Shown here: in pieces, positions 1,255-51,504 of the stretch | Position numbering within the stretch: position 1 is the stretch's first letter | How the letters are laid out: the number at the start of each line of letters is the position of its first letter | NCBI GenBank assembly: GCA_964393545.1 | Contig: CAYMUB010000059.1 | Location: 70,571-122,074 of the forward strand | Direction: 5' to 3' | DNA: 51,504 bases | Source: an uncultured Gammaproteobacteria bacterium | Lineage (GTDB): Bacteria; Patescibacteriota; Microgenomatia; Daviesbacterales; UBA10151 | The notes under the pieces: generated by a model | What the model was told of the DNA's origin: nothing | What the model saw: only the letters and a program-made list of their open reading frames with translations | Databases searched by the model: none | Program-made: the position numbers and the translations under genes

Positions 1255-3211
1255 TTTTCCAGATTTCTATTTGCCCGTTTTCAAAAACTAGTGTTGAATT
1301 TATTAAAGGATAAGCAACTGGTTTTACTTTTTTTGGGAAATATACATAGGATATTTTATTATTTTTTAATTCACTCCATACTTTGTCTCTCTGGTTGTTT
1401 TCAAAAATAATTTTTTGAGTGTTTAGTCTTTCTTTATAGTTATATCCCATGATATCCACTTGTTCCAAGTCTGCTAAATATATTCTTCTTTGAGAGAAAG
1501 CAGCTACATAAGATGTATCAAACCAAGCCCAGATAAAAGGAGTAGCCATTTCCACACCACTATATTTATTAAACGGTGAAGTAAGCACAATGCTATTTTT
1601 ATCAGAATTCTCCCTCAAATAATTTAAAGCTTGGATTTCGTCAGGAGTAATCTTGGCAATAGGCGGTTTATGGTAAAAATCATACAACACCCCAATCTGG
1701 GTAGGTACTGAGAAGATAATAATTAATGTAATAAATAACCATCTTAAAAGGTTATTTTTGATTCTGTTTTGTAACCCTGATGTTGTTATAGCAGCATAAA
1801 CACCAAAAATAAGTAAGAAGTATTGTAAAAACTGGATAGTATTTTTTGCCACGCCTTTTTGTAAAAATAGTAAAGGTAAAATCAGAGAAGTTATGGCAAT
1901 AGAAAAAGATAACTGAAAGAATAAATTGTTTAATATTTTTTTGATAGATTTTGCTATAAAGATTAAGCCTAAAAATTTAGTCCCTAAATTTCCAAAGAAA
2001 AAGAGTAAGAATCCGGTTAATTCTATTTGGAAAACCCTTTTCCAGTTCCTTTCGGCAAAATAAGTTTGTCTTTTCAACTCTAAATCTATCCAGTCTAGTC
2101 TTGAATCTACCACGATCATTGTTCTGATAAACCACCAGGGTTCAAAGATTAAAAATGAAGTTGAATTGGCAGTATTTGGTAAATATAAAATAGCAGAAAG
2201 TAAGCTACTTAAAATAAATAAACAAAGCAGGTATATTTTTTTATCCTTGAATAGTTCGACTAATCCTACCAGCAGTAAACTTATTAAAACCACTACAGAG
2301 GCATATATTTTGAAAACAGCCAAAGATCCAATCACTACAATTAAAATTCCAGATAACCCCCAATTCTTTTTAGGAAAGAAACAAAGAAAGTAAATAATGG
2401 TTAATACTAAGATATCAGAAATAATCTGAGGCGGATTACCAATAGAACTTTGTATCTGGGTAGCCCAAAAAATACTTTCTCCGCCAATTACATGATTTTT
2501 AAAAAAAGTTACAAAATAGCCAAAGCTTCCAGCAAAGTAGACAAAAAAAGAAGACCAAAGACCTGTACTAAAAGAGTTATTTATTTTCCTTCCCAAAAGG
2601 AAGGCCATGGATCCCAAAAGGATAGAGTTCAAAAAAGGAAAAAACCTAAAGTACAAATCCAAACTAGAGAATTTAAAGTATTTACTAAATTGGGCCGGAG
2701 CTATATCAGAAAAGAAATGATAATTTACCAATCTTTCACCGGCAAAGATAGGGTTTTGCAGAGGATAGCCCTTTTTGATTTCCTCCATTAAAGCTATATG
2801 CCATGGTCCATCATGACCGTTAGAGCTATAAAAAATTAAGTCGTTATTAATCTTTAAGCCGCTTGGTGCCATAATTGCCATCTGTCCAAGTATCCCTATG
2901 GTAAATACTATAAGTAGCAGTAAAAGGTGTTTCTTGGAGGATATTTTGAAATTAATTCTTTGGAATTTAGTTTTTTTTAAGTAAACTAAGTTAATAAGCC
3001 CAATTATCGGCAATAATAATATAGAAATTTTGAATACTAATAAAATATATGAAAGGAGAGTAAATACAACAAAGCCAATAATAGTGCCTAATACTATTTT
3101 TTCTTTGAAGCCGAAATAAGTTTTACTATAATTTAGAATAAAGATTCCTGGTAAAGTAAAGCAGGCAGTAGAAACAATAAGAAATAGAATAAAGTAAATC
3201 AAAATTTCCAT
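1247..3211 (-). CDS. GT-C-like polytopic membrane glycosyltransferase, family unassigned
   Basis: 654 aa, many TM helices, an external loop with GHDGPWH..YPLQNP..NYHFFSD, and a C-terminal soluble domain (A..YLRENS..IVLT). Confidence 0.6.
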   Translation of the reverse strand: MEILIYFILFLIVSTACFTLPGIFILNYSKTYFGFKEKIVLGTIIGFVVFTLLSYILLVFKISILLLPIIGLINLVYLKKTKFQRINFKISSKKHLLLLLIVFTIGILGQMAIMAPSGLKINNDLIFYSSNGHDGPWHIALMEEIKKGYPLQNPIFAGERLVNYHFFSDIAPAQFSKYFKFSSLDLYFRFFPFLNSILLGSMAFLLGRKINNSFSTGLWSSFFVYFAGSFGYFVTFFKNHVIGGESIFWATQIQSSIGNPPQIISDILVLTIIYFLCFFPKKNWGLSGILIVVIGSLAVFKIYASVVVLISLLLVGLVELFKDKKIYLLCLFILSSLLSAILYLPNTANSTSFLIFEPWWFIRTMIVVDSRLDWIDLELKRQTYFAERNWKRVFQIELTGFLLFFFGNLGTKFLGLIFIAKSIKKILNNLFFQLSFSIAITSLILPLLFLQKGVAKNTIQFLQYFLLIFGVYAAITTSGLQNRIKNNLLRWLFITLIIIFSVPTQIGVLYDFYHKPPIAKITPDEIQALNYLRENSDKNSIVLTSPFNKYSGVEMATPFIWAWFDTSYVAAFSQRRIYLADLEQVDIMGYNYKERLNTQKIIFENNQRDKVWSELKNNKISYVYFPKKVKPVAYPLINSTLVFENGQIEIWKIN

Positions 3212-3219
3212 CTAACTTA

Positions 3220-3253
3220 ATCTTAACACCTTAAGATATGTGCGTGATATACT
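3220..3253. promoter_or_regulatory. Divergent extended -10 promoters in a 50 bp spacer
   Basis: Plus strand: TG-A-TATACT (3245-3253), 8 nt before ATG 3262. Minus strand: TG-T-TAAGAT (3228-3220), 8 nt before ATG 3211. Inverted repeat ATCTTAA-cacc-TTAAGAT at 3220-3237. No SD on either side. Confidence 0.65.
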
Positions 3254-3261
3254 GAAATTAG

Positions 3262-4962
3262 ATGAGTATCCGCCCAAAACAAATCTTACTAGTCCTGATT
3301 ATTCTTCTGGCATTGATCCTTCGGGTTTGGAGGCTTGATCTGGTTCCAATATCACTCTTTGGGGATGAACTGGATGTTGGGTATCAGGCATATTCTATTC
3401 TAAAAACAGGTAAAGACTATTCTGGTAATTTTTTCCCCCTTCATTTTAAATCTTTAGCCGAATGGAGAACACCTCTTTATCTATACTCATCTGTACCCAC
3501 AGTAGCGTTATTTGGAATTAACGCTTGGGGAGTAAGGCTGCCGGCAGCCATATTTGGAGTATTAGGAGTCTTAGCATTTTACTTGTTAGTAAAAGAACTG
3601 ACAAAGAATGAAAGTTTAGGTTTACTTTCTGCATTTTTACTTGCAGTATCCCCATGGCATCTGCATTATTCCAGAGCAGGCTTTGAAGTTACAGAAATGC
3701 TGTTTTTGTATATTCTAGGAGTATTTTTTTTGTTACTCAGTTTAAGGGGAAAGAATACCTTATGGTTGGCAGCTATTTTACTGGCTTTAACCCCCTGGGC
3801 TTATAATACAGCCAAACTGTTTCTTCCTCTAACTATTATTGTAGTTTTGATTATCTGGAGGGATAAATTTAAAGCGATTTCTAAACAAAGATTAATTTTG
3901 GCACTGATAGCCTTTTCCATATTCGCTGCTCCCTATACCTTCAATACTCTATTTGGGGGAGGAACGCAAAGAATACAAAGTATTTCAATATTTAATAATC
4001 CAACCATTATTCCGCAGATGGGTTTTGACCGTCTAAATGATATTAAAATGAGAAATGGAGTTACCTACTCAGTAAGCATTGTTGATAAATTATTTCATAA
4101 TCAAATAATCTCTTTTAGTGAGATTTTTTCCAGGAATTATTTTCAGGCTTTTTCAACCAATTTCCTTTTTACTGATGGAGATGTGCTTAATTTAAGACAA
4201 GCATCAGGCAGTGAATTCTATAAAATTGAGAGCATTTTTTTGCTACTGGGATTGTTTTTTCTCATAGTCATACAGCTTGATAAAAAAGTTAAAACTTTTC
4301 TTTTCTTTTGGCTTATTGTTTCACCAATTCCTTCAAGTCTGACAAAGGGAGGGGGAGATCATGCTACCAGGTTAATCCTAATGCTGCCTGTTCTTACTAT
4401 TTTGATAGCGTTTGGTATGTACTATAGTTATGTAAAAATAAACCAGAAATTTAAGAGTTTATCAATTATATTAATCTCAATGGGTTTATTTTTAAGTTTC
4501 CTCTATTATCAACACAATTATTGGATTCATTACCCTTGGGAGTCAGAAAGATGGTGGCAGGCAGGTTTTGAAAATAGTATTAAGCTTGCAGTTAAAGAGA
4601 GCTCAAACTATGAAAAAGTTATACTTAGCTCTGCCAACGAACCAGCCTTGGTATTTTTCTTAGGCTGGTCTATGTACCCACCTGAAGTTTTTCAGAAGGA
4701 ATATAGCTCATATGCATTAAATAAGGAGATCAAACCAACTTTGAGCCTTGGTAAATTTGAATTTCCTCCTGTTGGGCAAGGTTTAAGTCTTTACGAAATA
4801 GGTTCTAAACTGTCGAAGAAAGTTCTGTATGTAGCAACAGCAAAGGAAGTGGTGGTGGATCTTAACAAAGAACCGGAAAGATTGCCTAAAGATATCAGTC
4901 TTGTTAAAACAATTAATTATCCGTCAGGAGCGCCAGCTTTTTATTTTTTTACTAAACCTTAA
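3262..4962 (+). CDS. ArnT/PMT-like (GT39/GT83) GT-C glycosyltransferase, paralog 1
   Basis: P.SLFGDELDVGYQAYSILKTGKD first-loop DE motif; SPWHLHYSRAGFE; DHATR; WWQAG at the start of the C-terminal domain. Confidence 0.8.
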   Translation: MSIRPKQILLVLIILLALILRVWRLDLVPISLFGDELDVGYQAYSILKTGKDYSGNFFPLHFKSLAEWRTPLYLYSSVPTVALFGINAWGVRLPAAIFGVLGVLAFYLLVKELTKNESLGLLSAFLLAVSPWHLHYSRAGFEVTEMLFLYILGVFFLLLSLRGKNTLWLAAILLALTPWAYNTAKLFLPLTIIVVLIIWRDKFKAISKQRLILALIAFSIFAAPYTFNTLFGGGTQRIQSISIFNNPTIIPQMGFDRLNDIKMRNGVTYSVSIVDKLFHNQIISFSEIFSRNYFQAFSTNFLFTDGDVLNLRQASGSEFYKIESIFLLLGLFFLIVIQLDKKVKTFLFFWLIVSPIPSSLTKGGGDHATRLILMLPVLTILIAFGMYYSYVKINQKFKSLSIILISMGLFLSFLYYQHNYWIHYPWESERWWQAGFENSIKLAVKESSNYEKVILSSANEPALVFFLGWSMYPPEVFQKEYSSYALNKEIKPTLSLGKFEFPPVGQGLSLYEIGSKLSKKVLYVATAKEVVVDLNKEPERLPKDISLVKTINYPSGAPAFYFFTKP

Positions 4963-4963
4963 A

Positions 4964-9398: not shown

Positions 9399-9413
9399 GT
9401 TCATTAAATGATA

Positions 9414-11072: not shown

Positions 11073-11074
11073 GT

Positions 11075-12223
11075 TTAAATTTTTATTAAATAACGTATTG
11101 GGTCTCTTAAGAAGATATCAATCATTGTGAGAGTGATTTGTAGAATTATTAAAACAAAAAAAGAAAGAATCAAAGTCTTCATAAACCTTCCTTTATAACT
11201 TATAAACTTTTCAAAACCAATACTGGTTATTAAAAATATTACGGGTGCAACTAAAAAAGATTTTTCCAAATTTGGCGACGGGTAACTAAATACAGACACA
11301 AAAGTTAAGCATAAAAAGGTAAGTATTAAATACCGTGCACTATTAATATTTCTTAGTACTTTAACCAGGCCAAATAAGAAAGGAATTAGAAAAGCAGTGT
11401 AAATAGGCGTACTTGCAGAAAATCCCATTAACTTATATTGTCCTGTAAAGTATGTGACTGGAATCAGGTGAGTAAATTGGTTTCTTAATATATTTTCAAA
11501 AATGTAGGTATATTTATTTTCAAATAACTTTCCTACTTTGAAAACTTTTGTCTCTTTCAACTCTCCTTGAAAAGTATTAGCCGTGTTTATTAAACGGATA
11601 TCAGAAAAAAAAGTTAGGTTGGTTGTGATTAGATTCCGAGAACCCTCTTTATGAGAAATAATCAACAAAACAAGAGGAATAAGTAATACTGTTTGAGAAA
11701 TGAAAATAATTTTGGATTGTTTATGTTTTGAAGAAAATAGATGAAAGATAACTAAAATAAATATAAGAAATCCCACTATGAAATTAGTATAAAAAAGCAT
11801 TGTTTCCAAAAGTAAGAAGGTATATAGCCAAAGCTTATTTTTTGAAAGACTAAAATTTATTAGACTTATAAAAGAAGATAATATTAGAAACAAATAGAAT
11901 ATAGAGGCAGAAGAAGCAAGTTCTAGATATATGGTCCAAGGTGATATAAAATACAACCCTGAAAGTATCAATCCAGTATTTTGGTTAAAAACCTTTCTTG
12001 AAATTTCATAGAGAAGAACCCCATTAAGTGCTCCCAGAATGATTACTACCTCCCTTGAAATTTTGAAGTTGATGTTTAATAAGTCTAAAGTAAACAGATT
12101 TACAAAGTGAGTATGTGATCCTAAGTTGAAATAAGCATGTAACAATTCAAAGCAGCCTACCAGAGTAAATAACCCGAATAGTAATTTATACTTGTTGGAA
12201 ATATTCATTGCAGGCAAAATCAT
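11075..12223 (-). CDS. Truncated GT39-like paralog lacking the DE loop and C-terminal domain (putative pseudoenzyme subunit)
   Basis: 382 aa; ISPW; FFSDIRLINTANTFQGE..GKLFENKY. Same architecture as 6610-7767. The start could be the second Met (MNISN). Confidence 0.6.
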   Translation of the reverse strand: MILPAMNISNKYKLLFGLFTLVGCFELLHAYFNLGSHTHFVNLFTLDLLNINFKISREVVIILGALNGVLLYEISRKVFNQNTGLILSGLYFISPWTIYLELASSASIFYLFLILSSFISLINFSLSKNKLWLYTFLLLETMLFYTNFIVGFLIFILVIFHLFSSKHKQSKIIFISQTVLLIPLVLLIISHKEGSRNLITTNLTFFSDIRLINTANTFQGELKETKVFKVGKLFENKYTYIFENILRNQFTHLIPVTYFTGQYKLMGFSASTPIYTAFLIPFLFGLVKVLRNINSARYLILTFLCLTFVSVFSYPSPNLEKSFLVAPVIFLITSIGFEKFISYKGRFMKTLILSFFVLIILQITLTMIDIFLRDPIRYLIKI

Positions 12224-12230
12224 GACTATA

Positions 12231-12296
12231 ATGATAATAGCATACGGCTATGATTGGTTTCGACCATTTTACTTATGAAGTGTTAGTTGGTAAGAT
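12231..12296. promoter_or_regulatory. Divergent promoters in an 80 bp spacer
   Basis: Plus strand: TTTACT (12268-12273), 17 nt spacer, TG-G-TAAGAT (12288-12296), 7 nt before ATG 12304. Minus strand: TG-C-TATTAT (12242-12234), 10 nt before ATG 12223. Confidence 0.6.
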
Positions 12297-12303
12297 TTAT
12301 TAG

Positions 12304-13203
12304 ATGCAAGCTAAAATCTCTGTCGTTTTAAATACCTTAAATAATGAAAGTATCATAGAGCGGGCAATTAGATCTGTTAAATGGGCTGATGAAGTTGTCG
12401 TGTGTGACATGCGTTCCGATGATAAAACAGTGGATGTTGCAAAAAAAATGGGGGCAAAAGTCTTTATTCATGAAAGATCAGAGTATGTTGAGTTGGTCCG
12501 GAATTTTATTATTTCTAAGGCGTCTAATAATTGGATACTAATACTGGATCCAGATGAAGAGGTGCCTCAATCACTAGCAGAAAGACTAACTGAGATTACA
12601 AATGGACTAAAACAAATAGATTACGTTAGATTGCCCAGGAAGAATATTATTTTTCACTATTGGATGAAAGCTGCTATGTGGTGGCCAGACTATAATATTA
12701 GATTTTTTAAAAAAGACAAAATTAGATGGGGTGATAAGATCCATAGGCCCCCACAGACTGAAGGAGAAGGGATTGATCTGGAATCCAATGAGGATTTTGC
12801 TATTATCCATCATCACTATGAAACGATTTCTCAATTCTTAGAAAGAATGATCAGATATACTAGAATTCAAGCTAAAGAATTGGGAGAGGAAGGCTATAAA
12901 TTTAACTGGAAAGACTTAATAAAAAAACCTTTAAAAGAGTTTTTATCTAGATTTTTTGCAAATCATGGCTATGAAGATGGAATACATGGTTTAACATTAA
13001 GCTTGCTTCAATCATTTTCTTTTCTGATAGTATATCTTCGCCTTTGGGAAGCGGAGAAATTCAGACCAGAAGCAATAAATAGCAAAGAGCTCAGACAAAT
13101 CTCTAGACAATCAGGTAAAGAGATAGACTATTGGTTTAAATATGGTAATTTATCAAAAAATCCTTTTAAAAGATTTATTCAAAAAGTGCAAGGTAGAATT
13201 TAA
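12304..13203 (+). CDS. GT2 glycosyltransferase, WaaE/KdtX-like (beta-1,4-glucosyltransferase-like)
   Basis: ISVVLNTLN; CDMRSDDKT; ILDPDEE; PR.NIIF..W; WPDY.IRFF; HH.Y. Confidence 0.8.
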   Translation: MQAKISVVLNTLNNESIIERAIRSVKWADEVVVCDMRSDDKTVDVAKKMGAKVFIHERSEYVELVRNFIISKASNNWILILDPDEEVPQSLAERLTEITNGLKQIDYVRLPRKNIIFHYWMKAAMWWPDYNIRFFKKDKIRWGDKIHRPPQTEGEGIDLESNEDFAIIHHHYETISQFLERMIRYTRIQAKELGEEGYKFNWKDLIKKPLKEFLSRFFANHGYEDGIHGLTLSLLQSFSFLIVYLRLWEAEKFRPEAINSKELRQISRQSGKEIDYWFKYGNLSKNPFKRFIQKVQGRI

Positions 13204-13206
13204 ATT

Positions 13207-15080: not shown

Positions 15081-15081
15081 T

Positions 15082-15759: not shown

Positions 15760-15763
15760 ATCC

Positions 15764-18807: not shown

Positions 18808-19538
18808 GTTCCAAAGTTGTAATAGTCATGCCCGCATATAATGCAGCAAAAACTATTAAAGATACGTACCAGGAGATTCCTGAGCGATTTAGAAGAAATA
18901 TTATTTTAGTTGATGATCATAGTAAGGATAATACGGTTGATGTAGCAAAGAGTTTAGGTATCCGGGTTTTTACTCATTCCAAAAATCTAGGTTATGGAGG
19001 TAACCAAAAAACTTGCTACTTAGAGGCTTTAAAGCTTAACCCAGATATTGTAATAATGCTTCATCCTGATTATCAATACGACGCAACTCTGATAGAGGAA
19101 CTTGTAAGACCTATTGAACAGGGAAGATTTGATTTTATGTTCGGTTCCAGGATACAAAACAGATTCTCTGCTTTAGCTGGGGGTATGCCGGCTGTTAAGT
19201 ATTATGTTAACAGAATAGTTTGTCTTCTGGAAAATACCTTACTTGGGGTTAATTTTACTGAACATTTTTCAGGATTCCGGGCATACTCTAGTAAGTTACT
19301 TAAAATAGTACCCTTCCAATATTTTTCTGATGATTTTATTTTTGATCAACAAATGACAATCTCTGCTTTAAGCTATAAATTTAAAATCGGGGAGATTCCT
19401 ATACCAACTAGGTATCATCAGAAGGCCTCGTCAATACAATTTATAAAGGGGACAAAATTTATTCTAGAGATTTTTTGGGTAATTTTTCTCTATCAACTGC
19501 ACAGATTAGGTTTATTTAAAAACAGGCTTTTTTCCTAA
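18804..19538 (+). CDS. DPM1-like GT2 (putative polyprenol-phosphate sugar synthase)
   Basis: VVMPAYNAA; LVDDHSKDNT; NLGYGGNQK; MLHPDYQYD; GSR; TE.FSGFRAYS; FIFDQ; EIPIPTRY. Confidence 0.8.
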   Translation: MSSKVVIVMPAYNAAKTIKDTYQEIPERFRRNIILVDDHSKDNTVDVAKSLGIRVFTHSKNLGYGGNQKTCYLEALKLNPDIVIMLHPDYQYDATLIEELVRPIEQGRFDFMFGSRIQNRFSALAGGMPAVKYYVNRIVCLLENTLLGVNFTEHFSGFRAYSSKLLKIVPFQYFSDDFIFDQQMTISALSYKFKIGEIPIPTRYHQKASSIQFIKGTKFILEIFWVIFLYQLHRLGLFKNRLFS

Positions 19539-21164: not shown

Positions 21165-21170
21165 ATTTTC

Positions 21171-21231
21171 ATTTTATCATCATTCATGATAATGAATAGC
21201 ATTTATAGGGATAAATTGTTAACATTATTCT
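21171..21231. promoter_or_regulatory. Divergent promoters in a 73 bp spacer
   Basis: Minus strand: TG-A-TAAAAT (21179-21171), 6 nt before ATG 21164. Plus strand: TG-T-TAACAT (21217-21225), 12 nt before ATG 21238, or TATTCT (21226-21231), 6 nt before it. Inverted repeat ATTCAT-gata-ATGAAT at 21182-21197. Confidence 0.55.
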
Positions 21232-21237
21232 AGCTAC

Positions 21238-31113: not shown

Positions 31114-31130
31114 ATATATAAAGTAAGGCA

Positions 31131-31139
31131 TGTTATATT
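31131..31139 (+). promoter_or_regulatory. Extended -10 promoter
   Basis: TG-T-TATATT, 7 nt before ATG 31147, in a 33 bp gap with no SD. Confidence 0.55.
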
Positions 31140-31146
31140 TCATCCA

Positions 31147-33594
31147 ATGGGAAAAAAGAAAAAAGTTTTAGTGACAGGATCTGGTGGATTAATCGGTTCT
31201 GAAGCAGTTAGTTTTTTCTGTAGGAATGATTTTGAAGTTGTTGGTGTAGATAATAATATGAGGGCTTACTTTTTTGGAGAAGAAGGCAGTACAAGGGGAA
31301 GTATAGAGAAGCAGCAAAGTATTTTTAGCAATTATAAACACAATAATTGTGATATACGGGATACCCAGGCAATTGAAGGAATTTTCAAAAAAGATAAATT
31401 TGATTTAATAATTCATACAGCTGCACAACCTTCACATGACTGGGCTGTCAAAGAACCCTTGACTGATTTTAGTGTAAATGCCACTGGGACATTAATTTTA
31501 CTTGAGAATTTCAGAAAGTATTCCCCGGAGAGTGTATTCATTTTTACTTCAACAAATAAGGTATATGGAGATTCTCCAAATAATCTTCCATTAATTGAAA
31601 AAGAAACAAGATTTGAGATAGATTTATCGCACAAGTATAAAAATGGTATCAGTGAGGATATGTCGATTGACAATAGCACACACAGCTTATTTGGTGTTTC
31701 TAAGACTGCAGCAGATTTAATGGTTCAGGAGTACGGTAAATACTTTCATTTAAAGACTGGAATCTTTAGGGGGGGGTGTTTAACAGGATCAGGTCATGCT
31801 GGAGTACAACAACATGGATTTTTATCTTATTTGGTCAAATGTATTTTGACTGGAAGAAAATACACAGTATTTGGTTATAAAGGGAAACAAGTTAGAGATA
31901 ATATACATGCTTATGATTTAATAAACGCCTTTTATAATTTTTATTTAAATCCTAATGAGGGGGAAGTTTACAATATTGGAGGTTCAAGGTTTGCCAATGT
32001 TTCAATTATTGAGGCAATAAAAAAAATTGAGCAAATTTCCGGCAAGGTGGCTAAGGTTGAATATGTTGATGAAAATAGGATAGGAGATCATATTTGGTAT
32101 GTTTCTGATGTTTCAAAATTTAAGAAAGATTACCCTGACTGGAATTATAAATATGATATAGATTCAACCATTGAGGATATTTGTAGAAATAGCACTTTTG
32201 GGAGGAAAGTATTTAGTTTTGCCATTGCTAAAAACTTGGATTACTGGCGGGAGAAAAATTGGTATTTTCATAGCCAGTTAAAACAAATATTTAAAGATCG
32301 TGTAAAAGAAAATTCTAAAGTATTGCAGATTGGATATGGATTAGGGGATATTATGTCAGAGTTATATCCCAAAAATGGTGTTAGCTTTGATGATGATTCA
32401 GGCTTTATTGCATTATCTCGAAAGAGGTATCCCAACATTAAGTTTAGAAACTTTAATTTTACAAAGAATAAATTAAATGAACAATTTGATTATGTGATAT
32501 TCCCAAATTCTTTGGAGCATATATATGATATACAAACTGTTTTTGAAAATATTTATTCGGCACTACATAAAGAATCAAGAGTGGTAATTACAGCTTTAAA
32601 CCCGAGATGGGAACAAATCTTTGAGATATTAGAAAGATTAAAATTAAAAAGACCTGAAGAAGAAAGAAATTGGTTAAAGCTTGAAAATATCAAAAACTTG
32701 CTTGAGATTTCAGGTTATAAAATTCTGGAGAGCGGGTATAGGATAATACTTCCGACACATATTCCATTACTGAGCAAATTTTTAAACGGTATAGTAGAAA
32801 AGGTGGGTTTTCTCTCTTCTTTTTGCGTTGAGCAATATGTTGTGGCAATAAAAGATAAGTTCTCGGTTAATAATAATTTGAATTGCTCAGTTATTATACC
32901 TACCCTTAATCATACGGATGAGGTTAAAAGATTAATTCCACTTACACCAAAATTGGGTAAAAAAACTGAAATAATAATTGTTGATGGTAGTCCAAATAAG
33001 AATGTGGAGCAAATGATTCAGAAAAATTACAAAGATATGAAGAACTTAAAATATATTAAAGTCGATAGATTTATAACAATTGATAATTTGATTAAAGAAG
33101 GGATAGATGCAGTGCAGTCAGATATAGTAATTATCTATGATGATTTAATGAGTATACCCCCTTTCGAGCTAACACGCTTTTATAATTTACTTGCCGGCGG
33201 TAGAGCTGATTTTGTAAATGGTATCCGATATGTATACCCGATAGAAGGTCAGCCTCTAAGACAGCTTAATATAATTGGCAATATTATTTTCAGTTCTGTT
33301 TACTCTCTACTTTTGGGACAAAAAGTTAAAGATCCACTTTCTCTCATCAAGGGTTTTCACCTTAGAGACTACAAAAACATAAAGATTTCAAATAAGGACG
33401 TTTTTCTGGATTTACTTATTAAAGTGGGAGGAAAGGGGAAAATAAAGGAAATACCTGTGCATTATAATTCTAAATCCTACTTTGTTTATAAAAAAAAGAC
33501 CGCCTCTCGAATTTTAAGTCTAATGAATGGTATGCTAAATGGTATTTGGTATCTTAAGATATTTTTACCAATTAAGAAAATTTTAAATAAATGA
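31147..33594 (+). CDS. Triple fusion: CDP-paratose/tyvelose-2-epimerase-like SDR + class I SAM methyltransferase-like + GT2-like domain
   Basis: Approx. residues 1-350: GSGGLIG, AAQPSHD, STNKVYG, RGGCLTG, VRDNIH, R.GDH..Y. Approx. 360-570: [22 protein letters not shown]. Approx. 575-815: SVIIP..EIIIVDG..F.NG.RY.YP.EGQ. One uninterrupted 815 aa ORF. Confidence 0.75.
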
Positions 33595-34376
33595 AGAGTA
33601 AAGATTGGCAAGTACCAAAATTTAAAACTTTAGAGCTAAGACAAAAAAAATCCAAATATTGTGTTTGTATTCCAGTTTTAAATGAGGGAGAAAAAATTAA
33701 AAAAGAGTTGCAAAGATTGCTTCCTTATTCGAAGATGGCGGATATTATTATTGCAGATTGGGGAAGTACTGACGGCTCTAATGATCCAAAATTTTTAAAA
33801 AAGATGAATGTCAGATCGTTACTTACTTTAAAAGATAAAGGCAGACAAGGGACACAACTCAGAATGGCGTTTGCCTATGCCTTAAAACAAGGTTACGAAG
33901 GAATTATTCAAATAGATGGGAATAATAAAGATGGTGTAGAAGTGCTACCTGAATTTATCAGGGCTTTGGACGGTGGTTTTGACTATACGCAAGGCTCAAG
34001 ATTTATAAAAGGGGGAAAAGCAGTTAATACACCATTTATCAGATGGTTAGCAGTTAGATTTATAGGATCACCATTACTTAGTTTTGGAGCAAGATATTGG
34101 TATACAGATATAACAAATGGCTTTAGAGGGTATAGTAAAGAGTATTTAACTCATCCTGAGGTTCAACCTTTTAGAAATATTTTTGTAGGATATGAGTTAA
34201 ACATGTATCTTACAGTAAGAGCAAATCAGCTAGGTCTGAAAACTCAGGAAGTGCCTGTAGCCAGAATATATCCCCTAGGAAAAGTTCCGACAAAGATAAG
34301 CTTTTTCAAAGGTAATTTAACTTTTTTAATTGTAATAATAAAAACAGCCTTTGGTTTTTATACCCCTAAGCCTTAA
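33591..34376 (+). CDS. DPM1-like GT2 (putative polyprenol-phosphate sugar synthase)
   Basis: VCIPVLNEG; ADWGSTDGS; QIDGNNKD; QGSRF..GG; [10 protein letters not shown]; E.PV.R.YP. Confidence 0.78.
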
Positions 34377-35493: not shown

Positions 35494-35507
35494 AAGTATA
35501 CTTAGGT

Positions 35508-35517
35508 ATGATATCAT
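35508..35517. promoter_or_regulatory. Palindromic bidirectional extended -10 element
   Basis: ATGATATCAT is self-complementary and reads TG-A-TATCAT on both strands: 8 nt before ATG 35526 (+) and 14 nt before ATG 35493 (-). Confidence 0.55.
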
Positions 35518-35525
35518 TCTAAGAT

Positions 35526-36377
35526 ATGAAAAAGAAGATCCCTGTTCGGGATAAAGATCTTATTTCAGTAATTATTACTACTAAAAACGAGGAAGATGTA
35601 ATTGGAGACTTGCTGGAAAGTTTAAAAAAACAATCCTTTAAAAAAATAGAAGTTATTTTGGTTGATAATAATTCTACAGATTTAACAGTTAAAATTGCGA
35701 AGAATTATAAAATTGATATCTATAATTACGGTCCTGAACGATCTTCACAAAGAAATTATGGAGCCAAAAAAAGCAAAGGAAAGTACCTATTATTTTTAGA
35801 TGCTGATATGAAATTAGCACCAAGAGTTATAGAAGAATGTGTTAAAGAAATTAAAAGAAAAAAAAGTACAGGAGGTGTTGCGATTCCAGAGGAGTCTGTT
35901 GCAGAAAATTTTTGGGGTAAGGTTAAAGCATTTGAAAGATCTTTTTATAATGAAAAAGGAGACCCTGTTACAGATGCTGCAAGATTTTTTCCAAAAGAAG
36001 TATTTAATAAAGCAGGGGGATATGATGAGACTATTACAGGTCCAGAAGACTGGGATTTACCTGATAACATTAGAGATTTAGGATATCATATAGACAGAAT
36101 AGAATCCGTTATTTATCATAGAGAACGGATTATTTCAGTCTTTGATCTGGCACGGAAAAAATACTATTACGGATTAAAGACTTATCGTTATTTAAGAAAG
36201 CATAATATTTCCCCTATTTCCCCTAAAACTGTATTTTTTTTGCGTCCTATTTTTTACAAAAATTGGAGAAAAATTATATTACACCCTATTTTATCTTTAT
36301 CACTTCTATTTATGCTAACTTTAGAATTAATGGCTGGGGGAGCAGGGTATTTTATTGGTAGATTAAGCAACAAATGA
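35526..36377 (+). CDS. GT2 glycosyltransferase
   Basis: ISVIITTKNEE; VDNNSTD.T; ERS.QRNYG; FLDADM; GGYDE..GPEDWDL. Confidence 0.82.
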   Translation: MKKKIPVRDKDLISVIITTKNEEDVIGDLLESLKKQSFKKIEVILVDNNSTDLTVKIAKNYKIDIYNYGPERSSQRNYGAKKSKGKYLLFLDADMKLAPRVIEECVKEIKRKKSTGGVAIPEESVAENFWGKVKAFERSFYNEKGDPVTDAARFFPKEVFNKAGGYDETITGPEDWDLPDNIRDLGYHIDRIESVIYHRERIISVFDLARKKYYYGLKTYRYLRKHNISPISPKTVFFLRPIFYKNWRKIILHPILSLSLLFMLTLELMAGGAGYFIGRLSNK

Positions 36378-38641: not shown

Positions 38642-39473
38642 TTTGAATAATCTACTTAATGTAGTAGGGGATGTAGCTTTAAGAAGAAGGGCAAGATGGC
38701 TTATTCAGAATATGAATCTAAAAAAAGGAGACATAATTCTTGATATAGGATGTGGTGATGGTTTTTATCTTTACTTATTAAGTAAAATAGACTCCGATTT
38801 CAAGCTAACAGGTATTGATATAAACATACATGCGCTTAAAAGTGCGAAGGCAAATTTGAAAGGTAAGAAAGTGAATTTGATTTGTGGTAATGTTTTGAAA
38901 CTCCCTTTTCCGAAAGAGACCTTTGATAAAATTATTGCCAGTGAAGTTTTGGAACATGTTGGGGATGACCTCTCTGCCTTAAGAGAAATAAATAGAGTTC
39001 TTAAAAAAGAAGGGACTTTTGTCTTATCTGTTCCGCATAAAAACTATCCATTTTTTTGGGATCCAATAAACTGGATTTTGGATCATTTCTTTGATGTCCA
39101 TATAAAGTCTGGTTTTTGGGCAGGAATATGGAATCAGCATTTAAGATTATATACAGAGGTCAACTTACAAACTCTTCTAAAAAAAAGTGGTTTTAAAAAA
39201 ATAAAGATTGCAAAATTAACACATTATTGTTTACCATTTAACCATTACATAATTAATATTGTTGCCATAATATTAGCCAGTAAAAAAATTCCTAATATAT
39301 TTCAAAAATTATTTAGTAAGTACAAAGCGAATCACCAAGCCCGATTAAAACATAGTTCATCACAAAGAAATAAATTTAGTTTATTTGCGCCCATTTTTTT
39401 CTTTGATCAGTTGAATGATAATTGGAGCGAGAAAGGAAGTGCTGTTTCTTTAGTGGCGGTATGTGAAAAATGA
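38631..39473 (+). CDS. Class I SAM-dependent methyltransferase
   Basis: ILDIGCGDG; GIDIN; LPFP.ETFD; EVLEHV.DD; R.LK..G; H.RLY. Confidence 0.85.
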   Translation: MKINLNNLLNVVGDVALRRRARWLIQNMNLKKGDIILDIGCGDGFYLYLLSKIDSDFKLTGIDINIHALKSAKANLKGKKVNLICGNVLKLPFPKETFDKIIASEVLEHVGDDLSALREINRVLKKEGTFVLSVPHKNYPFFWDPINWILDHFFDVHIKSGFWAGIWNQHLRLYTEVNLQTLLKKSGFKKIKIAKLTHYCLPFNHYIINIVAIILASKKIPNIFQKLFSKYKANHQARLKHSSSQRNKFSLFAPIFFFDQLNDNWSEKGSAVSLVAVCEK

Positions 39474-41701: not shown

Positions 41702-43904
41702 TTGGAAGGATATTAAAAACCCAGATTCAGGAGGTGCTGAACTTGTTACCTTTGAATTTGCAAAAAGACTTGTTAACGAAGGTAATCAGGTTACTATATT
41801 TTGCAGAAAATTCTCCAACTCACAACCGGTTGAGCATATTGATGGAATAAGAATTCATAGAAAAGGAAATGCCTTAACTACTTACTTTCATGCATGGAGA
41901 TATTATAAGAAGTTAAATCCAAAACCCGATCTAGTCATAGATATGCTAAATACCATATTTTGGCAAACCCCCTTATATGTACCTAAGTCTAAAAGATTGG
42001 CTTATGTTAATCAATTAGCCAGAGAAGTGCTATTTTATGAATTGTGGCCACCGATATCATGGATAGCTTACCTTCTTGAGCACCTACAATTTTTAAGTTA
42101 TAAAACAACCCAGGTGTTATGTTTTTCAAACAGTACTAAGCAAGATCTGCTTAAAATAGGACTAAATGAATCTAATATACATATATTTCCCTTGGGAATT
42201 GACCCAAAAAAATATAGGCAGGGTCAAAAAACAGAATTTCCGCTTTTTTTATGTGTCAACAGACTGGTTAGGATGAAGCGGACGGATTTAGCTATCAAGG
42301 CTACTTGGACACTAAAACCTAAGTATCCCGGTATCAGACTGCATATTATGGGAAGGGGCTACGAGCAAGAAAGATTGCAGTCCCTGGTTCAAAAACTCAA
42401 TCTTCAAAAGAATGTATCTTTTGATTTTAATGGAAGTGACGGCGAGAAAATAAAACTTATGTCACAAGCTTGGGCATTAATTTTTCCCTCAGTTAAAGAA
42501 GGGTGGGGTATAACTGTAACAGAATCTGCTGCTTGTGGAGCTCCAACTATTGCAAGCAGAGTAAGTGGTTTGATTGATTCTGTACAAGAAGGCAAGAATG
42601 GAATATTTGTTTCAAAAAATCCCAGTCCAAAGGAGTTAGCACAAGCAATGGAGAGAATTATCACTGATGATAAATTAAGAAATAAGCTTAGTGAAGAATC
42701 GGTTAGGTTAAGTCAAAATTATTCTTGGGACGGGAGCTTCAAGGTATTTTATAGCCTAATTAAAAAGTTGGTGGGAGAAAAGAAAAAGAACATATTGATT
42801 TTATCCTGGAGAGGTCCTAAACACTATAATTCAGGAGGAGCAGAGATGTCAGTTCATGAGCATGCGAAAGCCTGGGTAAGGGCTGGTTTTAATGTCACAC
42901 TATTTACCTCAAAGGTTATTGGTTTAAAATCCAGCGAAATTATTGATGGTGTGACTATAATAAGGCAAGGAAAACAAGTATTTGGGGTTCAACTGCAGGC
43001 TTCTCTATATTATCTCAAAAATCGAGAATCGATTGATTTATTAGTTGATAATTTTCATGGTATCCCCTTTTTTACACCACTTTATGTATTTAAGCCTAAG
43101 ATAGCATTTATTCATGAGGTTGCAAAAGAAGTCTGGTTTTTAAATTATCTTTATTTCCCGCTAAACTATATATTTGGATTAATAGGATATATTTTAGAAC
43201 CGTTGGTCTTTCGGTTTATATATGGCAGGATTCCATTTATTACTGTATCCAATTCTACAAAACAAGACTTAATCGTATGGGGAATACCAGAGATGAATAT
43301 TAATGTAATTTATAACGGCGTAATTATACATAAGGTGGATCAAAATATATCTAAGAATAAAGTTAAGACCTTAATATTTTTGGGGGAAATTAGCATAGAT
43401 AAAGGGACGGAGGATGCAATTTATGTATTCAGTAAACTGGTTAAAGAAGATAAAATGGGAAAACTTTGGATTGTTGGTAAAGGAAGCCTACCTTATATAG
43501 AAAGAATGAAAAAACTCATCGACAAGTTAGGTTTGAAAGAAAAGGTTAAATTATGGGGCTTTGTTAGCGAGAAAAGTAAGTTTGAGCTTTTAAAAATGTC
43601 CCATATTTTGATTCATCCTTCTTTGCGTGAGGGCTGGGGTCAAGTTGTAATTGAAGCAGCAGCTATGGGGACTCCTACAGTTGGATACAATGTTGCAGGA
43701 CTTAAGGACTCTATTCTGGACGGAAAAACAGGTTTGCTTTCAGAAATTAATATTGATGATTTGACCAGGAAAATAGAAAAACTTGTATACGACAGGGAAT
43801 TATATAGGCAGATGCAAGTCAATTGTATTGAATGGTCAAAGCAATTTGTTTGGAAGAAGGCAACAGAGCAAAGCTTGAAACTAGTGAGACTTTCTCCGGA
43901 TTAG
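41682..43904 (+). CDS. Tandem GT4-GT4 fusion
   Basis: Both halves begin NILILSW(K/R)..SGGAE and carry EGWG..V.E (KEGWGITVTE; REGWGQVVIE). Confidence 0.85.
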   Translation: MNILILSWKDIKNPDSGGAELVTFEFAKRLVNEGNQVTIFCRKFSNSQPVEHIDGIRIHRKGNALTTYFHAWRYYKKLNPKPDLVIDMLNTIFWQTPLYVPKSKRLAYVNQLAREVLFYELWPPISWIAYLLEHLQFLSYKTTQVLCFSNSTKQDLLKIGLNESNIHIFPLGIDPKKYRQGQKTEFPLFLCVNRLVRMKRTDLAIKATWTLKPKYPGIRLHIMGRGYEQERLQSLVQKLNLQKNVSFDFNGSDGEKIKLMSQAWALIFPSVKEGWGITVTESAACGAPTIASRVSGLIDSVQEGKNGIFVSKNPSPKELAQAMERIITDDKLRNKLSEESVRLSQNYSWDGSFKVFYSLIKKLVGEKKKNILILSWRGPKHYNSGGAEMSVHEHAKAWVRAGFNVTLFTSKVIGLKSSEIIDGVTIIRQGKQVFGVQLQASLYYLKNRESIDLLVDNFHGIPFFTPLYVFKPKIAFIHEVAKEVWFLNYLYFPLNYIFGLIGYILEPLVFRFIYGRIPFITVSNSTKQDLIVWGIPEMNINVIYNGVIIHKVDQNISKNKVKTLIFLGEISIDKGTEDAIYVFSKLVKEDKMGKLWIVGKGSLPYIERMKKLIDKLGLKEKVKLWGFVSEKSKFELLKMSHILIHPSLREGWGQVVIEAAAMGTPTVGYNVAGLKDSILDGKTGLLSEINIDDLTRKIEKLVYDRELYRQMQVNCIEWSKQFVWKKATEQSLKLVRLSPD

Positions 43905-45614: not shown

Positions 45615-47128
45615 AAATTTTCTATTTGATAAACCTGTATATCGCCAACGTCTTTTAATAAATGGTTTTTAGGTATTTTTAGCTCCAGAGCAGTAACGTA
45701 ACTTTTTTTCAAAATTAATAAATTCAGATTATATTTTTTTGCCAGTTTCTTGATTGACGTTCTAAGTATAGGAAAAACCTCTTGTAACTTCAGTAATCCC
45801 TTCATCTCTATATCTACTAAAGCATCAACTTTAGTATTATACAAAAAGATTAAGTTCATAGCGTGGGGAACACAGATAATTCTGGGTTTAAATTTTAAGT
45901 GATTAAGATAGGAAAAAACTTCCGGAAGCTCCGAAGTCAAGGATCTATTTTTATCAGTAATAACACCTTTCCACTGGGCATATACAGTCAGTAACACATT
46001 AATTAGGAATATTGAAATATAGATGATAATAATCTCAATTTTGTACTGGGTATTAACGAAAGCTGAAAATGTTAAAGCTGCCAGTATTGAAGTTGGGACT
46101 AGAGCCATTTCTAAATAACGCTGTCCTTCTCCGATCGGAATTAAATATTTCACTGAAAGAACAATTGTGGAGATAATATAAAAGAAAACCACCCATAAAC
46201 TCATTTTTAAAAATAAAGGATTATCAAGAGGAATAATACTTAATTTTGCATATTTATCCATAAAAAAAGCAAAAGGAGCAAGTAACCAAATGTTTGTTGC
46301 AATAAGTGAGAGGGGAGTAAAGGTAGAAAGTAGATAATAAATGAAACCAACAAAATCCATCTTATGGATTTTGTTGTCGGAAAAGTTTCCTCTAATTTGG
46401 TGAGCGAATCGAAACTTATAATGTAGCATCCAAAAATATATTATTGATAAGTGCCCCTTTAAAACTCTCAAGTAGTAACCACGACTAATCAGGATTGCTG
46501 TTAATAAAGATAAAAAAAAGTTAATAAGATATATTAAATCTTTGTCAAAAATAGAAAAAAATATACTAATAAACAAAAGTGCCTGTACTGGGAAGCGGTG
46601 AGAAAAAAATATTAAGGTTGTAAAGAGATACCCTATTACAAGATAAATTAAAGTATGTGTTTGTTGATACATAAGTATTGGGTAAAAGGCTAAAGTAAAG
46701 TTTAAATAACCTAAGGATCTGGGGGTTAAGTAACTGTTTTCTAAAGCTGCAATCGGGGTAGAAAAATAAATCATTTGTGCAATTAGGGCAATTTCTAATC
46801 TATTAGTTAATTGGAGAGTAATAAAAAAGACTAAATAATTTTGGATACAATCAAATATAGGTGCAATAAAGCCCTGAATTTCGAGTAATGTTTTTTTGGG
46901 AATAAAAGATAAAATCCAGGGAAATACAGGAGGATAGTCAAAATATCCTTCTATAATAAATCCACTGCTTACTATACCTTTTGGGATATGATGGTGATTT
47001 TTTCTAATAATATCTGCTTCAATCATCCTTTTCCAAACATCAATTCCAAAATATCGATTGAATATCCTGGGGTATATTTGAAAAAAGTAACTGATAATCG
47101 GGACAATAAGTCCAATTAGGAATTGCAT
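45611..47128 (-). CDS. GT-C-like polytopic membrane protein, family unassigned
   Basis: First loop with Asp (GIDVW) and DYPP; many TM helices; GEGQRY; soluble C-terminal domain. ATGA-coupled to the carbamoyltransferase. Confidence 0.55.
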   Translation of the reverse strand: MQFLIGLIVPIISYFFQIYPRIFNRYFGIDVWKRMIEADIIRKNHHHIPKGIVSSGFIIEGYFDYPPVFPWILSFIPKKTLLEIQGFIAPIFDCIQNYLVFFITLQLTNRLEIALIAQMIYFSTPIAALENSYLTPRSLGYLNFTLAFYPILMYQQTHTLIYLVIGYLFTTLIFFSHRFPVQALLFISIFFSIFDKDLIYLINFFLSLLTAILISRGYYLRVLKGHLSIIYFWMLHYKFRFAHQIRGNFSDNKIHKMDFVGFIYYLLSTFTPLSLIATNIWLLAPFAFFMDKYAKLSIIPLDNPLFLKMSLWVVFFYIISTIVLSVKYLIPIGEGQRYLEMALVPTSILAALTFSAFVNTQYKIEIIIIYISIFLINVLLTVYAQWKGVITDKNRSLTSELPEVFSYLNHLKFKPRIICVPHAMNLIFLYNTKVDALVDIEMKGLLKLQEVFPILRTSIKKLAKKYNLNLLILKKSYVTALELKIPKNHLLKDVGDIQVYQIENL

Positions 47129-47135
47129 TTCGATG

Positions 47136-47183
47136 ATTATACCAAACTTAAACTTGGATCTTAAAAGGAGTTGCTGATATAAT
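47136..47183. promoter_or_regulatory. Divergent consensus extended -10 promoters
   Basis: Minus strand: TG-G-TATAAT (47144-47136), 7 nt before ATG 47128. Plus strand: TG-A-TATAAT (47175-47183), 8 nt before ATG 47192. Confidence 0.75.
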
Positions 47184-47191
47184 AACTCGTA

Positions 47192-47854
47192 ATGAAAAGT
47201 GTAAAGAAAATTGTGATTTTAGGCGCGGGAGGAAACTCCAGGGATATTGTGGATATCTTACATGATATTAACCGATTTCAAGGTACTACTTATGAATGTG
47301 TTGGTTTTTTGGATGATGACAAGGCATTATGGGGGAAAAAACTTATCGGAGAAAAAGTTTTAGGTCCTATTGAAAAGGCCAGTGATTTTCCAGACTGTTT
47401 TTTTGTAAATGGTGTTTATTCTGTAATTAATTTTTTTAATAATGAAAATGTTATCCAAAAAGCAAAGATACCTTTATTAAGATATATAACTGTCATCCAT
47501 CCTTCAGCACACATTTCTAAAACTGCTCGAATAGATAAAGGTAGTGTTCTAATGCGTAATGTAACCATAATGTCCGACGTCGTCATAGGAAAACACGTTA
47601 ATATTCATCCAGGAGCAGTAATAAGTCATGGCACCCAAATAGGTGATTATTCGTTTATTGCCAATACGGCATCAATAGGAGGGTACGTAAAAATAAGCAA
47701 CTCTTGTTTTATTGGGTCGAATAGCTCTTTAAGAGATCGTATCACAATAGGCAGCTACAGTATTATAGGAATTGGTAGTACGGTTGTAGAAGATATTCCG
47801 GGTAATGGTGTATATATTGGCAGTCCAACAAGATTCCTTAGAAAATCCCGATAG
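47192..47854 (+). CDS. NeuD/PglD-like sugar acetyltransferase (hexapeptide left-handed beta-helix)
   Basis: ILGAGG; GFLDD; IHPSA.IS..A.I..G; hexapeptide repeats; IG.GS.V..D.P..Y.G.P.R. Confidence 0.85.
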   Translation: MKSVKKIVILGAGGNSRDIVDILHDINRFQGTTYECVGFLDDDKALWGKKLIGEKVLGPIEKASDFPDCFFVNGVYSVINFFNNENVIQKAKIPLLRYITVIHPSAHISKTARIDKGSVLMRNVTIMSDVVIGKHVNIHPGAVISHGTQIGDYSFIANTASIGGYVKISNSCFIGSNSSLRDRITIGSYSIIGIGSTVVEDIPGNGVYIGSPTRFLRKSR

Positions 47855-51496: not shown

Positions 51497-51504
51497 TATG
51501 AAGT

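Follow-up and report, generated by a model that had tools for sequence, protein, structure and literature searches.

The first gene of every recognisable transcription unit in the window (the whole stretch of 51,504 nucleotides analysed here) is preceded by the extended -10 motif TGnTAnnnT at a short distance from its ATG, which is 6-8 nt at eight of the eleven heads and 10, 12 and 14 nt at the other three. These motifs are likely to represent -35-independent extended -10 promoters giving rise to leaderless or near-leaderless mRNAs, the downstream genes of which would be translated by coupling. The eleven heads correspond to five divergent gene pairs and to the gene starting at 31147, and all of them belong to one 51-kb sugar-transferase (glycosylation) cluster, which makes up the window. 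The host genome is of low GC content (32%), uses code 11 and belongs to the Microgenomates group of the Patescibacteria (CPR), near Daviesbacteria and Woesebacteria. CPR bacteria have reduced ribosomes and are only rarely available in culture or co-culture, and to our knowledge almost no transcript maps exist for them. Among DNA sequencing runs the window matched groundwater metagenomes only, and the RNA runs searched with its sequence gave no match; tRNA and Rfam scans of the window gave no matches either, and three of its proteins, including an IS30 transposase, have no exact database record.

The sites are given below, the gap being the number of nucleotides between the last T of TGnTAnnnT and the ATG. 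Labels of the type L0xx denote compared loci from relatives, in which the orthologs have 64-89% protein identity, L022, L026 and L029 being more distant.

3220-3228, minus strand: extended -10 TGTTAAGAT, gap 8, ATG at 3211 of a 654-aa membrane protein; in L019 the motif is retained before the ortholog, at gap 6
3245-3253, plus strand: extended -10 TGATATACT, gap 8, ATG at 3262, first of four genes in a GT-C/PMT_2 operon
12234-12242, minus strand: extended -10 TGCTATTAT, gap 10, ATG at 12223; predicted leader of about 3 nt; conserved in L019
12288-12296, plus strand: extended -10 TGGTAAGAT, gap 7, ATG at 12304 of a GT2, first of seven genes in its operon
21171-21179, minus strand: extended -10 TGATAAAAT, gap 6, ATG at 21164; the same in L019
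21217-21225, plus strand: extended -10 TGTTAACAT, gap 12, ATG at 21238; predicted leader of about 5 nt
31131-31139, plus strand: extended -10 TGTTATATT, gap 7, ATG at 31147 of an epimerase-methyltransferase-GT2 fusion
35508-35517, both strands: perfect 10-bp palindrome ATGATATCAT, yielding TGATATCAT on each strand
35509-35517, plus strand: extended -10 TGATATCAT, gap 8, ATG at 35526
35508-35516, minus strand: extended -10 TGATATCAT, gap 14, ATG at 35493 (epimerase)
47136-47144, minus strand: perfect extended -10 TGGTATAAT, gap 7, ATG at 47128; motif and gap identical in L039 and L040
47175-47183, plus strand: perfect extended -10 TGATATAAT, gap 8, ATG at 47192 of a PglD-like acetyltransferase
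36356-36364, plus strand: TGGTAGATT, followed after 9 nt by the internal ATG at 36374, the sole internal gene with the motif at 6-14 nt
50449-51470, minus strand: IS30-family transposase, the contrast case, starting with TTG and preceded by the strong Shine-Dalgarno (SD) sequence GGAGAGGAGGTG (-13.3 kcal/mol) and, at a distance of about 26 nt, by a TAAAAT -10

The coordinates and sequences of the eleven motifs, first pointed out in the initial annotation, were confirmed, as were its two perfect TGnTATAAT sites, TGGTATAAT and TGATATAAT. In the window as a whole the motif is not enriched, with 196 matches to TGNTANNNT against 178 +/- 12 in shuffled sequences, and it is special in position only. 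Such abundance is what would be expected of a chance pattern in AT-rich DNA that had been selected by eye. Nevertheless, the probability of finding the motif at a gap of 6-8 nt is 0.010 for a random ATG, so that its presence at eight or more of eleven heads has a binomial P of 1.8e-14, and both the motif and the spacing are textbook values that were not fitted to the data and that are conserved in orthologs. The comparison of heads with internal ATGs and shuffled sequences that the initial annotation had proposed, carried out here for the window, placed the motif at the heads, with 8/11 heads versus 0/28 internal genes at a gap of 6-8 nt (Fisher P = 2.7e-6) and 11/11 versus 1/28 at 6-14 nt (Fisher P = 7e-9). 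Already refuted by these positional and head-versus-internal tests, a chance origin is hardly conceivable. It had also been claimed that the signal lies in the TG and the fixed spacing, the hexamer alone being common, and this holds, since a TG stands before 11/11 hexamers at the heads but before only 5.9% of the TANNNT hexamers of the window overall. The -35 hexamers at the heads are weak (best matches of 2-5 out of 6, at 15-19 bp) and only three heads pass a generic -35/-10 scan; in the window, the counts given by generic -35/-10 and terminator scans were at or below those of shuffled sequences, and these scans are uninformative. An archaeal-type promoter was ruled out, there being no consistent TATA/BRE pattern at -26.

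Ribosome-binding signals were scored as a duplex of at least -4.5 kcal/mol in strength with the canonical anti-SD, the 3' end of the host 16S rRNA lying outside the window and the compared loci. No head reached this threshold (0/11), in agreement with the earlier claim that none has a correctly spaced SD, and the AGGAG near 47166 is indeed located upstream of the -10. The threshold was reached at 8 of 28 internal genes, with a random-position background of 14.6%, and -6 kcal/mol was reached only at 22908, at 39470 (marginally, -6.1) and at the IS30 transposase. On the other hand, in 21 of the 27 same-strand junctions the next start lies within -4 to +4 nt of the upstream stop (e.g. ATGA, TAATG), and since downstream genes mostly overlap or abut the preceding stops and lack an SD, they are probably translated by coupling. 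The IS30 transposase, in turn, is built like a classical gene with a leader and an SD, and so are the IS30 copies in L034 and L037; contigs of about 1 kb carry most of its homologs.

The low use of SD sequences throughout the cluster, together with the A-rich regions upstream of internal genes, would also suit a non-SD translation signal, that is, an AT-rich ribosome-binding or standby site of the Bacteroidetes type ("group B") rather than a promoter. A ribosome-binding motif would be expected at internal genes too (PMC6028130), but this one is present at 0-1 of 28. Moreover, the invariant TG and the T1, A2 and T6 positions are those of the contacts of RNA polymerase with an extended -10, and the L21 and L27 genes of a relative have in addition a perfect TTGACA at 17 bp (TTGACA-17-TAAACT-7-ATG). 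This makes a translation signal a highly improbable explanation.

Orthologous heads retain both motif and spacing, with variation in the flanks, the gap (by 1-2 nt) and the start codon (ATG or GTG). At head 3262, L019 and L024 have an unchanged GTGCGTGATATACT in spite of diverged flanks, and L026 has the motif with gap 9; at head 12304 the gap is 7 in L019 and L024, 6 in L022 (TGTTACAAT) and 10 in L026. Head 21164 appears in L024 as TGGTAAAAT followed by 6 nt and a GTG with which the open frame begins, and head 47192 appears in L040 as TGATATAAT followed by 8 nt and GTG. Both L019 (gap 13) and L024 (TGCTAACAT, gap 14) retain the motif of head 21238, and that of head 31147, which in the window sits within a 33-nt gap behind a co-directional gene, is kept in L010 (TGATATAGT, gap 9) and L009 (TGATATATT, gap 7). 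The palindrome at 35508-35517 is identical in L010, where a non-orthologous head also has TGATATAAT followed by 7 nt and ATG. In L029 the ortholog of the 12304 gene is internal and the motif is absent, and in the more distant L022, L026 and L029 several heads lack the pattern, one of them having an SD. As for the internal site at 36356-36364, it is a possible candidate for an internal promoter; it is conserved in L010 and not in L008, and its conservation in L010 is not diagnostic because the site is coding sequence.

Proximity to the start codon could also be incidental to genome compaction, the -10 elements being real but the mRNAs mainly leadered, from promoters further upstream or by read-through, or translation starting at a downstream codon. 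The intergenic regions are only 32-80 nt long, so that any promoter is necessarily near a start. Read-through is plausible, since convergent genes overlap and terminator-like sites are no more frequent than expected by chance, and at some heads an in-frame TTG a few codons further on offers an alternative start. Compaction, however, predicts no peak at 6-8 nt, and 50-80 nt could accommodate a leader of 20-30 nt with an SD, which 0/11 heads have. Spacings of 6-10 nt are maintained across relatives in spite of indels, and the conservation of N-termini extends as far as the proposed ATG. We consider that mainly leadered mRNAs are unlikely at these heads.

The start codons themselves appear to be well placed. 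All eleven heads start with ATG, and at ten of them this ATG is the first start after an in-frame stop, which blocks any upstream extension. At the remaining head, 35493, the sole upstream ATG (35517) falls inside the -10 palindrome; it was rejected as the epimerase start, being part of the predicted promoter, and the L008 and L009 orthologs start at the equivalent of 35493, from which the Pfam Epimerase domain would start at residue 7. Pfam domain matches start at residues 5-14 from the proposed ATGs. The start of the GT2 at 12304 can be taken as fixed because about 100 of the 120 homologs listed are exactly 299 aa long, and most homologs of the 505-aa protein have about 495-510 aa. In the 47128 gene, 34 N-terminal codons are conserved, though they are skipped by the public gene call in L039. 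In the public records compared, gene-callers passed over the start next to the promoter for at least four orthologs, with the loss of 7, 34 or 108 codons or the choice of a TTG, and such skipped starts truncate N-terminal transmembrane segments.

Since all the heads of the window lie in one glycosylation cluster, a cluster-specific effect is excluded through the relatives only. A regulator specific to the cluster could co-ordinate the glycosylation operons by binding to these sites, their likeness to a -10 being fortuitous, and the perfect 10-bp palindrome at 35508-35517 would fit such a binding site. Palindromic sites, however, amount to 1/11, the variable positions vary as those of -10 hexamers do, and the same arrangement precedes unrelated housekeeping genes in relatives, including those for TerC, a signal peptidase, an ABC transporter, L21 and L27. 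In the L034 and L037 housekeeping regions of two relatives, 10/37 heads have a -10 with at least five of six matches at a gap of 6-8 nt (P = 6e-9). Binding of such a regulator is therefore a very unlikely explanation. These regions also bear on the description of the arrangement as "pervasive" in the initial annotation, which stands for the cluster (11/11) and not for the housekeeping regions of relatives, where only about 27-40% of heads have it and SD-led genes coexist.

Leaderless first genes and coupled downstream genes, which had also been put forward from the first look at the sequence, remain the reading with which the head-only motif, the conserved spacing, the SD-less heads, the fixed starts and the stop-start overlaps agree. 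The eleven motifs would be sigma-70-type extended -10 promoters (TGn plus TAnnnT) with no need of a good -35. Because the promoter element lies 6-14 bases before the start codon, the mRNAs probably begin at or beside it: assuming a distance of 7 nt from the -10 to the transcription start, the transcripts of the eight heads with gaps of 6-8 would have as their first nucleotide the A of the AUG or one lying 1-2 nt ahead of it (0-2 extra nucleotides at gaps 7 and 8), and those of the three heads with gaps of 10, 12 and 14 would start about 3-8 nt before the AUG. In first genes the ribosome would bind the 5'-terminal AUG with no SD pairing, and downstream genes would be reached by termination-reinitiation coupling. 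Promoter activity, exact start sites and leaderless translation are here deduced from sequence. In the four divergent pairs other than that at the palindrome, the -10 elements stand back to back at distances of 16-45 bp, which may be near enough for polymerases to compete.

Several observations count against this reading, including the heads of L022, L026 and L029 that lack the pattern and the confinement of the window's heads to one cluster. The heads with gaps of 8, 10, 12 and 14 would carry a few extra 5' nucleotides, which in E. coli lower leaderless translation, and a GTG occupies the position of the ATG in the relatives L024 and L040. Leaderless GTG starts are poor in E. coli and functional in mycobacteria.

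The reading would extend leaderless organisation, with the promoter at the start codon, to the candidate phyla radiation and to a low-GC genome with the standard code, in which it is not anticipated by gene-finding models. At such heads the starts chosen by standard gene-callers are wrong, and a simple rule for these MAGs (TGnTAnnnT, then 6-8 nt, then ATG or GTG) could serve to delimit operons and to correct starts. More tentatively, and with rather less confidence than for the cluster itself, it can be proposed that a -35-less extended -10 abutting the AUG or GUG is the default in Microgenomates (CPR), with near-universal stop-start coupling and an SD that is largely dispensable, kept chiefly in mobile elements and in a minority of genes, so that these bacteria might be about as leaderless as haloarchaea. 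If this were so, a sizeable share of the operon-first starts in public CPR MAGs would be mis-called. These proposals yield predictions that can be tested by metatranscriptomics.

Several known systems resemble the organisation described here. Archaeal leaderless transcription (GeneMarkS-2 group D), in which a TATA box precedes the start by 22-26 nt, shares with it the many operon-first genes without a 5' UTR (here predicted) and the coupled internal genes, but here the signal is at -10 instead of about -26 and is a bacterial sigma-70 motif. Bidirectional promoters arising from sequence symmetry in the -10 region (PMC12825309, PMC10268837) have a candidate counterpart in ATGATATCAT, which reads TGATATCAT on both strands between divergent genes, although the two hexamers at 35508-35517 overlap by 2 bp only, not fully. 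The eleven sites are also like the extended -10 class in having a poor -35 and, at 11/11 sites, a TG separated from the hexamer by one base. That class is known from E. coli and is common in Gram-positives, epsilonproteobacteria and mycobacteria. Elsewhere such -35-independent (TGn) promoters, the elements of which have been described (PMC12641261), are a minority, whereas here the predicted promoters are seemingly the default and are tied to a constant spacing from the start codon.

The closest likeness is to the leaderless genes of other bacteria, in which a Pribnow box lies 6-8 nt from the start (PMC6028130) or a TANNNT about 12 bp upstream (PMC3160421), known as GeneMarkS-2 "group C" (PMC6028130) and as "TA-led" genes (Zheng et al. 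2011, PMC3160421) from Actinobacteria, Deinococcus-Thermus and some Mycoplasma. As in group C, a -10 (TANNNT) is found here 6-8 nt before operon-first starts, and those genes are SD-less and start with ATG or GTG. Code-11 genomes of group C are almost all high-GC (10.1101/2022.07.25.500264), whereas the present host combines code 11 with 32% GC; the -10 here has an invariant TG extension; 73-100% of the heads in this cluster fit, versus the 25-50% typical of group C; and internal genes of group C use an SD, while here they are mostly without one and 21/27 junctions overlap or abut. Leaderless genes in CPR/Patescibacteria, including Saccharibacteria, were not described in any report retrieved by full-text literature searches. 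Judging from the sequence, the cluster would have the known "group C" architecture in a lineage that is new for it.

Every head (first gene of a transcription unit) in the window carries an extended -10 element, TGNTANNNT, on the correct strand just ahead of its ATG (11/11). Heads were chosen independently of the motif, as the members of five divergent gene pairs (3211/3262, 12223/12304, 21164/21238, 35493/35526 and 47128/47192) plus 31147, which is preceded by a 33-nt gap, and this motif-blind definition returned the same eleven heads that the initial annotation had listed. At eight heads, 6, 7, 7, 7, 8, 8, 8 and 8 nt separate the last T of the element from the ATG; at the other three the gap is 10, 12 and 14 nt. 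None of the 28 internal starts shows the motif at 6-8 nt, and only one (36374, 9 nt) at 6-14 nt. With all ATGs of the window as the background, the motif falls at 6-8 nt with P = 0.010; finding it there at 8/11 heads has P = 1.8e-14. Heads differ from internal genes by Fisher tests at P = 2.7e-6 (gap 6-8) and P = 7e-9 (gap 6-14). A TG precedes 5.9% of the TANNNT hexamers window-wide versus 11/11 at heads. Over the whole window the motif is not enriched (196 occurrences vs 178 +/- 12 in shuffles); the signal is position alone, and neither the motif nor its spacing was fitted to the data, both being textbook values. The comparison with internal genes and shuffles, which had been proposed genome-wide as a check, confirms for the window that the motif is enriched at heads by position and not overall. 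The site ahead of 36374, a start that overlaps the upstream stop, is TGGTAGATT at 36356-36364 (+); its conservation in the related locus L010 may point to an internal leaderless promoter or simply to coding constraint.

The window (51.5 kb, 32% GC) is coding nearly throughout, and scans of its whole length found no tRNA genes or Rfam matches. By Pfam, nearly all genes are ascribed to glycan synthesis, including at least 12 GT-C/PMT_2 membrane glycosyltransferases, GT2 and GT4 enzymes, two NAD-dependent epimerases, methyltransferases, a Polysacc_synt flippase-like protein, a carbamoyltransferase and a PglD-like acetyltransferase, with an IS30-family transposase at the right end. The density of GT-C/PMT_2 paralogs is unusual (at least 12 per ~27 kb, 3262-30347), in repeated modules of PMT-PMT-small PMT and GT2-GT2-GT4. 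The product of 31147-33594 is an 815-aa fusion of NAD-dependent epimerase/dehydratase, SAM methyltransferase and GT2 domains; its L010 and L009 counterparts are fused too. The glycosylation cluster as a whole is syntenic among Microgenomates relatives; the nearest named ones are Candidatus Woesebacteria, Candidatus Daviesbacteria and Levybacteria/Roizmanbacteria, and the sequencing runs containing the window sequence are all groundwater or unspecified metagenomes, with no match among RNA runs. These data place the organism in the Microgenomates group of the Patescibacteria (candidate phyla radiation, CPR).

The start codons of the heads are well delimited. At 10 heads the ATG is the earliest possible start downstream of an in-frame stop, and starts further downstream would truncate folds, because the Pfam domains begin 5-14 residues past the proposed starts. 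About 100 of the 120 homologs listed for the GT2 at 12304 have exactly 299 aa, and the 505-aa protein at 47128 has homologs mostly of ~495-510 aa. The only upstream ATG of the epimerase gene at 35493, ATG 35517, was rejected as its start: it lies inside the -10 element, and the L008, L009 and L010 orthologs align from the equivalent of 35493. That element is a 10-bp palindrome, ATGATATCAT (35508-35517), which forms the extended -10 of both divergent genes, 35493 (-) and 35526 (+), and the spurious in-frame ATG that it creates lengthens the epimerase ORF by 8 codons.

Syntenic loci from relatives with 64-89% protein identity (L008, L009, L010, L019, L022, L024, L026, L029, L039 and L040) were compared with the window.

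Extended -10 elements at window heads and at their orthologs
3211: gap 8; L019 gap 6, following a 2-nt deletion
3262: TGATATACT, gap 8; L019 gap 8; L024 and L026 gap 9; flanking intergenic sequence diverged
12304: TGGTAAGAT, gap 7; L019 and L024 gap 7; L022 TGTTACAAT, gap 6; L026 TGATAAGAT, gap 10
21164: TGATAAAAT + 6 nt + ATG; L019 the same; L024 TGGTAAAAT + 6 nt + GTG
31147: TGTTATATT, gap 7; L010 TGATATAGT, gap 9; L009 TGATATATT, gap 7
47128: TGGTATAAT + 7 nt + ATG; L039 and L040 identical
47192: TGATATAAT + 8 nt + ATG; L040 TGATATAAT + 8 nt + GTG

Across relatives the motif is retained, its spacing varies by no more than a few nt, and it disappears once a gene is no longer a head. The 12304 ortholog keeps gap 7 in L024 despite a co-directional upstream gene, whereas the L029 ortholog, which begins 3 nt past the upstream stop, lacks the motif. 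Such retention at heads with nearly constant spacing, and loss at a non-head, would be expected if the promoter were tied to the start codon. The pattern is missing at several heads of the more distant cluster relatives (L022, L026, L029). The promoter-proximal codon is GTG instead of ATG, at an unchanged 6-8 nt spacing, at L024 ~19953 (-), where it stands first in the open frame of the 21164 ortholog, L040 5700 (-) and L039 9838 (-), which implies that GUG may be used as a leaderless start in the lineage.

Unrelated regions of relatives were sampled via IS30 homologs (L034, from a Daviesbacteria MAG, and L037). There, a -10 hexamer with at least 5/6 matches lies 6-8 nt before the start at 10/37 heads (expected rate 2.2%, P = 6e-9; distribution peak at 6-8 nt), including the genes for TerC, a signal peptidase, an ABC-transporter permease and an NYN-domain protein. 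SD-led genes (SecE, DUF378, IS30 copies) occur alongside. An additional head in L010 reads TGATATAAT + 7 nt + ATG. Because the pattern recurs outside the cluster in relatives, the promoter-at-start architecture is, on this comparative evidence, a probable lineage trait. The proposed leaderless organization had been called pervasive, which holds within the cluster (11/11 heads) but not outside it, where only ~27-40% of heads in relatives fit, a frequency that resembles that of ordinary group C genomes (the GeneMarkS-2 class with leaderless genes) and is not universal. The adjacent L21 and L27 genes (L037 18211-18784 (-)) each have a full consensus promoter, TTGACA-17-TAAACT-7-ATG.

The reported lack of SD sequences at heads is borne out, the best duplex with the canonical anti-SD among the 11 heads being -3.4 kcal/mol. 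Internal genes reach -4.5 kcal/mol in 8/28 cases (background 14.6%), and the only strong SDs in the window are those of 22908 and the transposase. The best -35 hexamers at heads match 2-5 of 6 positions; in the window, sites from a generic -35/-10 scan are no commoner than in shuffles, nor are intrinsic-terminator-like hairpins. At 21/27 same-strand junctions the distance from one stop to the next start is between -4 and +4 nt, mostly as ATGA overlaps. Where genes converge, their 3' ends share 8-27 nt (1247-1254, 19512-19538, 34366-34376, 43881-43904), except at one junction with a 15-nt gap (9399-9413).

The IS30-family transposase (50449-51504 (-)) has classical signals of its own, TAAAAT ~26 nt upstream and a strong GGAGG. 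Copies in relatives (L034 10001 and 11979; L037 9241) share this layout, unlike host genes, and all start with TTG or GTG, as does the window copy. IS30 homologs lie mainly on ~1-kb contigs, suggesting that the element is multi-copy and that assemblies break at it. Between the window's IS30 copy and the last glycosylation gene, a 112-aa ORF of uncertain gene status (50110-50448 (+)) has a TTG start, GGAG 9 nt upstream, no -10 close to the start and no Pfam match.

Transcription usually starts 7 +/- 1 nt from the -10 hexamer (PMC12641261). The predicted 5' end would be the A of the AUG at gap 6 (21164), at the AUG or 1 nt ahead at gap 7, 1-2 nt ahead at gap 8, and 3-8 nt ahead at gaps 10-14. 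Such transcripts would leave too little space at the 5' end for an SD; we infer that the ribosome binds the 5'-proximal AUG directly to translate head genes and that downstream cistrons are translated via coupling. All the indirect evidence available supports this probable leaderless reading, in which the start sites are predicted ones.

In practice, the layout could be used to correct start codons in CPR MAGs. Public gene calls bypass the promoter-proximal start in several orthologs of window heads, among them P0248/P0250 (471 aa vs 505 aa).

Public calls that skip the promoter-proximal start
L019 871 (-), 3211 ortholog: 7 codons short
L019 17236-18867 (-), 21164 ortholog: downstream TTG used
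L024 18298-19629 (-), 21164 ortholog: 108 codons short
L039 10001-11416 (+), 47128 ortholog: 34 codons short, the skipped codons conserved at the protein level

In leaderless genes of group C the Pribnow box lies 6-8 nt ahead of the start (PMC6028130), and "TA-led" genes have TANNNT ~12 bp upstream (PMC3160421); the window layout fits this published definition of bacterial leaderless genes. The palindrome at 35508-35517 is similar to the symmetry-based bidirectional promoters of E. coli and Salmonella (PMC12825309, PMC10268837). No report of leaderless genes in CPR was found in the full-text literature searched, and group C genomes with code 11 are nearly all high-GC (10.1101/2022.07.25.500264). 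The window differs from known leaderless genes in its host lineage, in pairing a low GC content with the standard code, in the near absence of SDs at internal genes, in the invariant TG extension and in the completeness of the pattern within the cluster.
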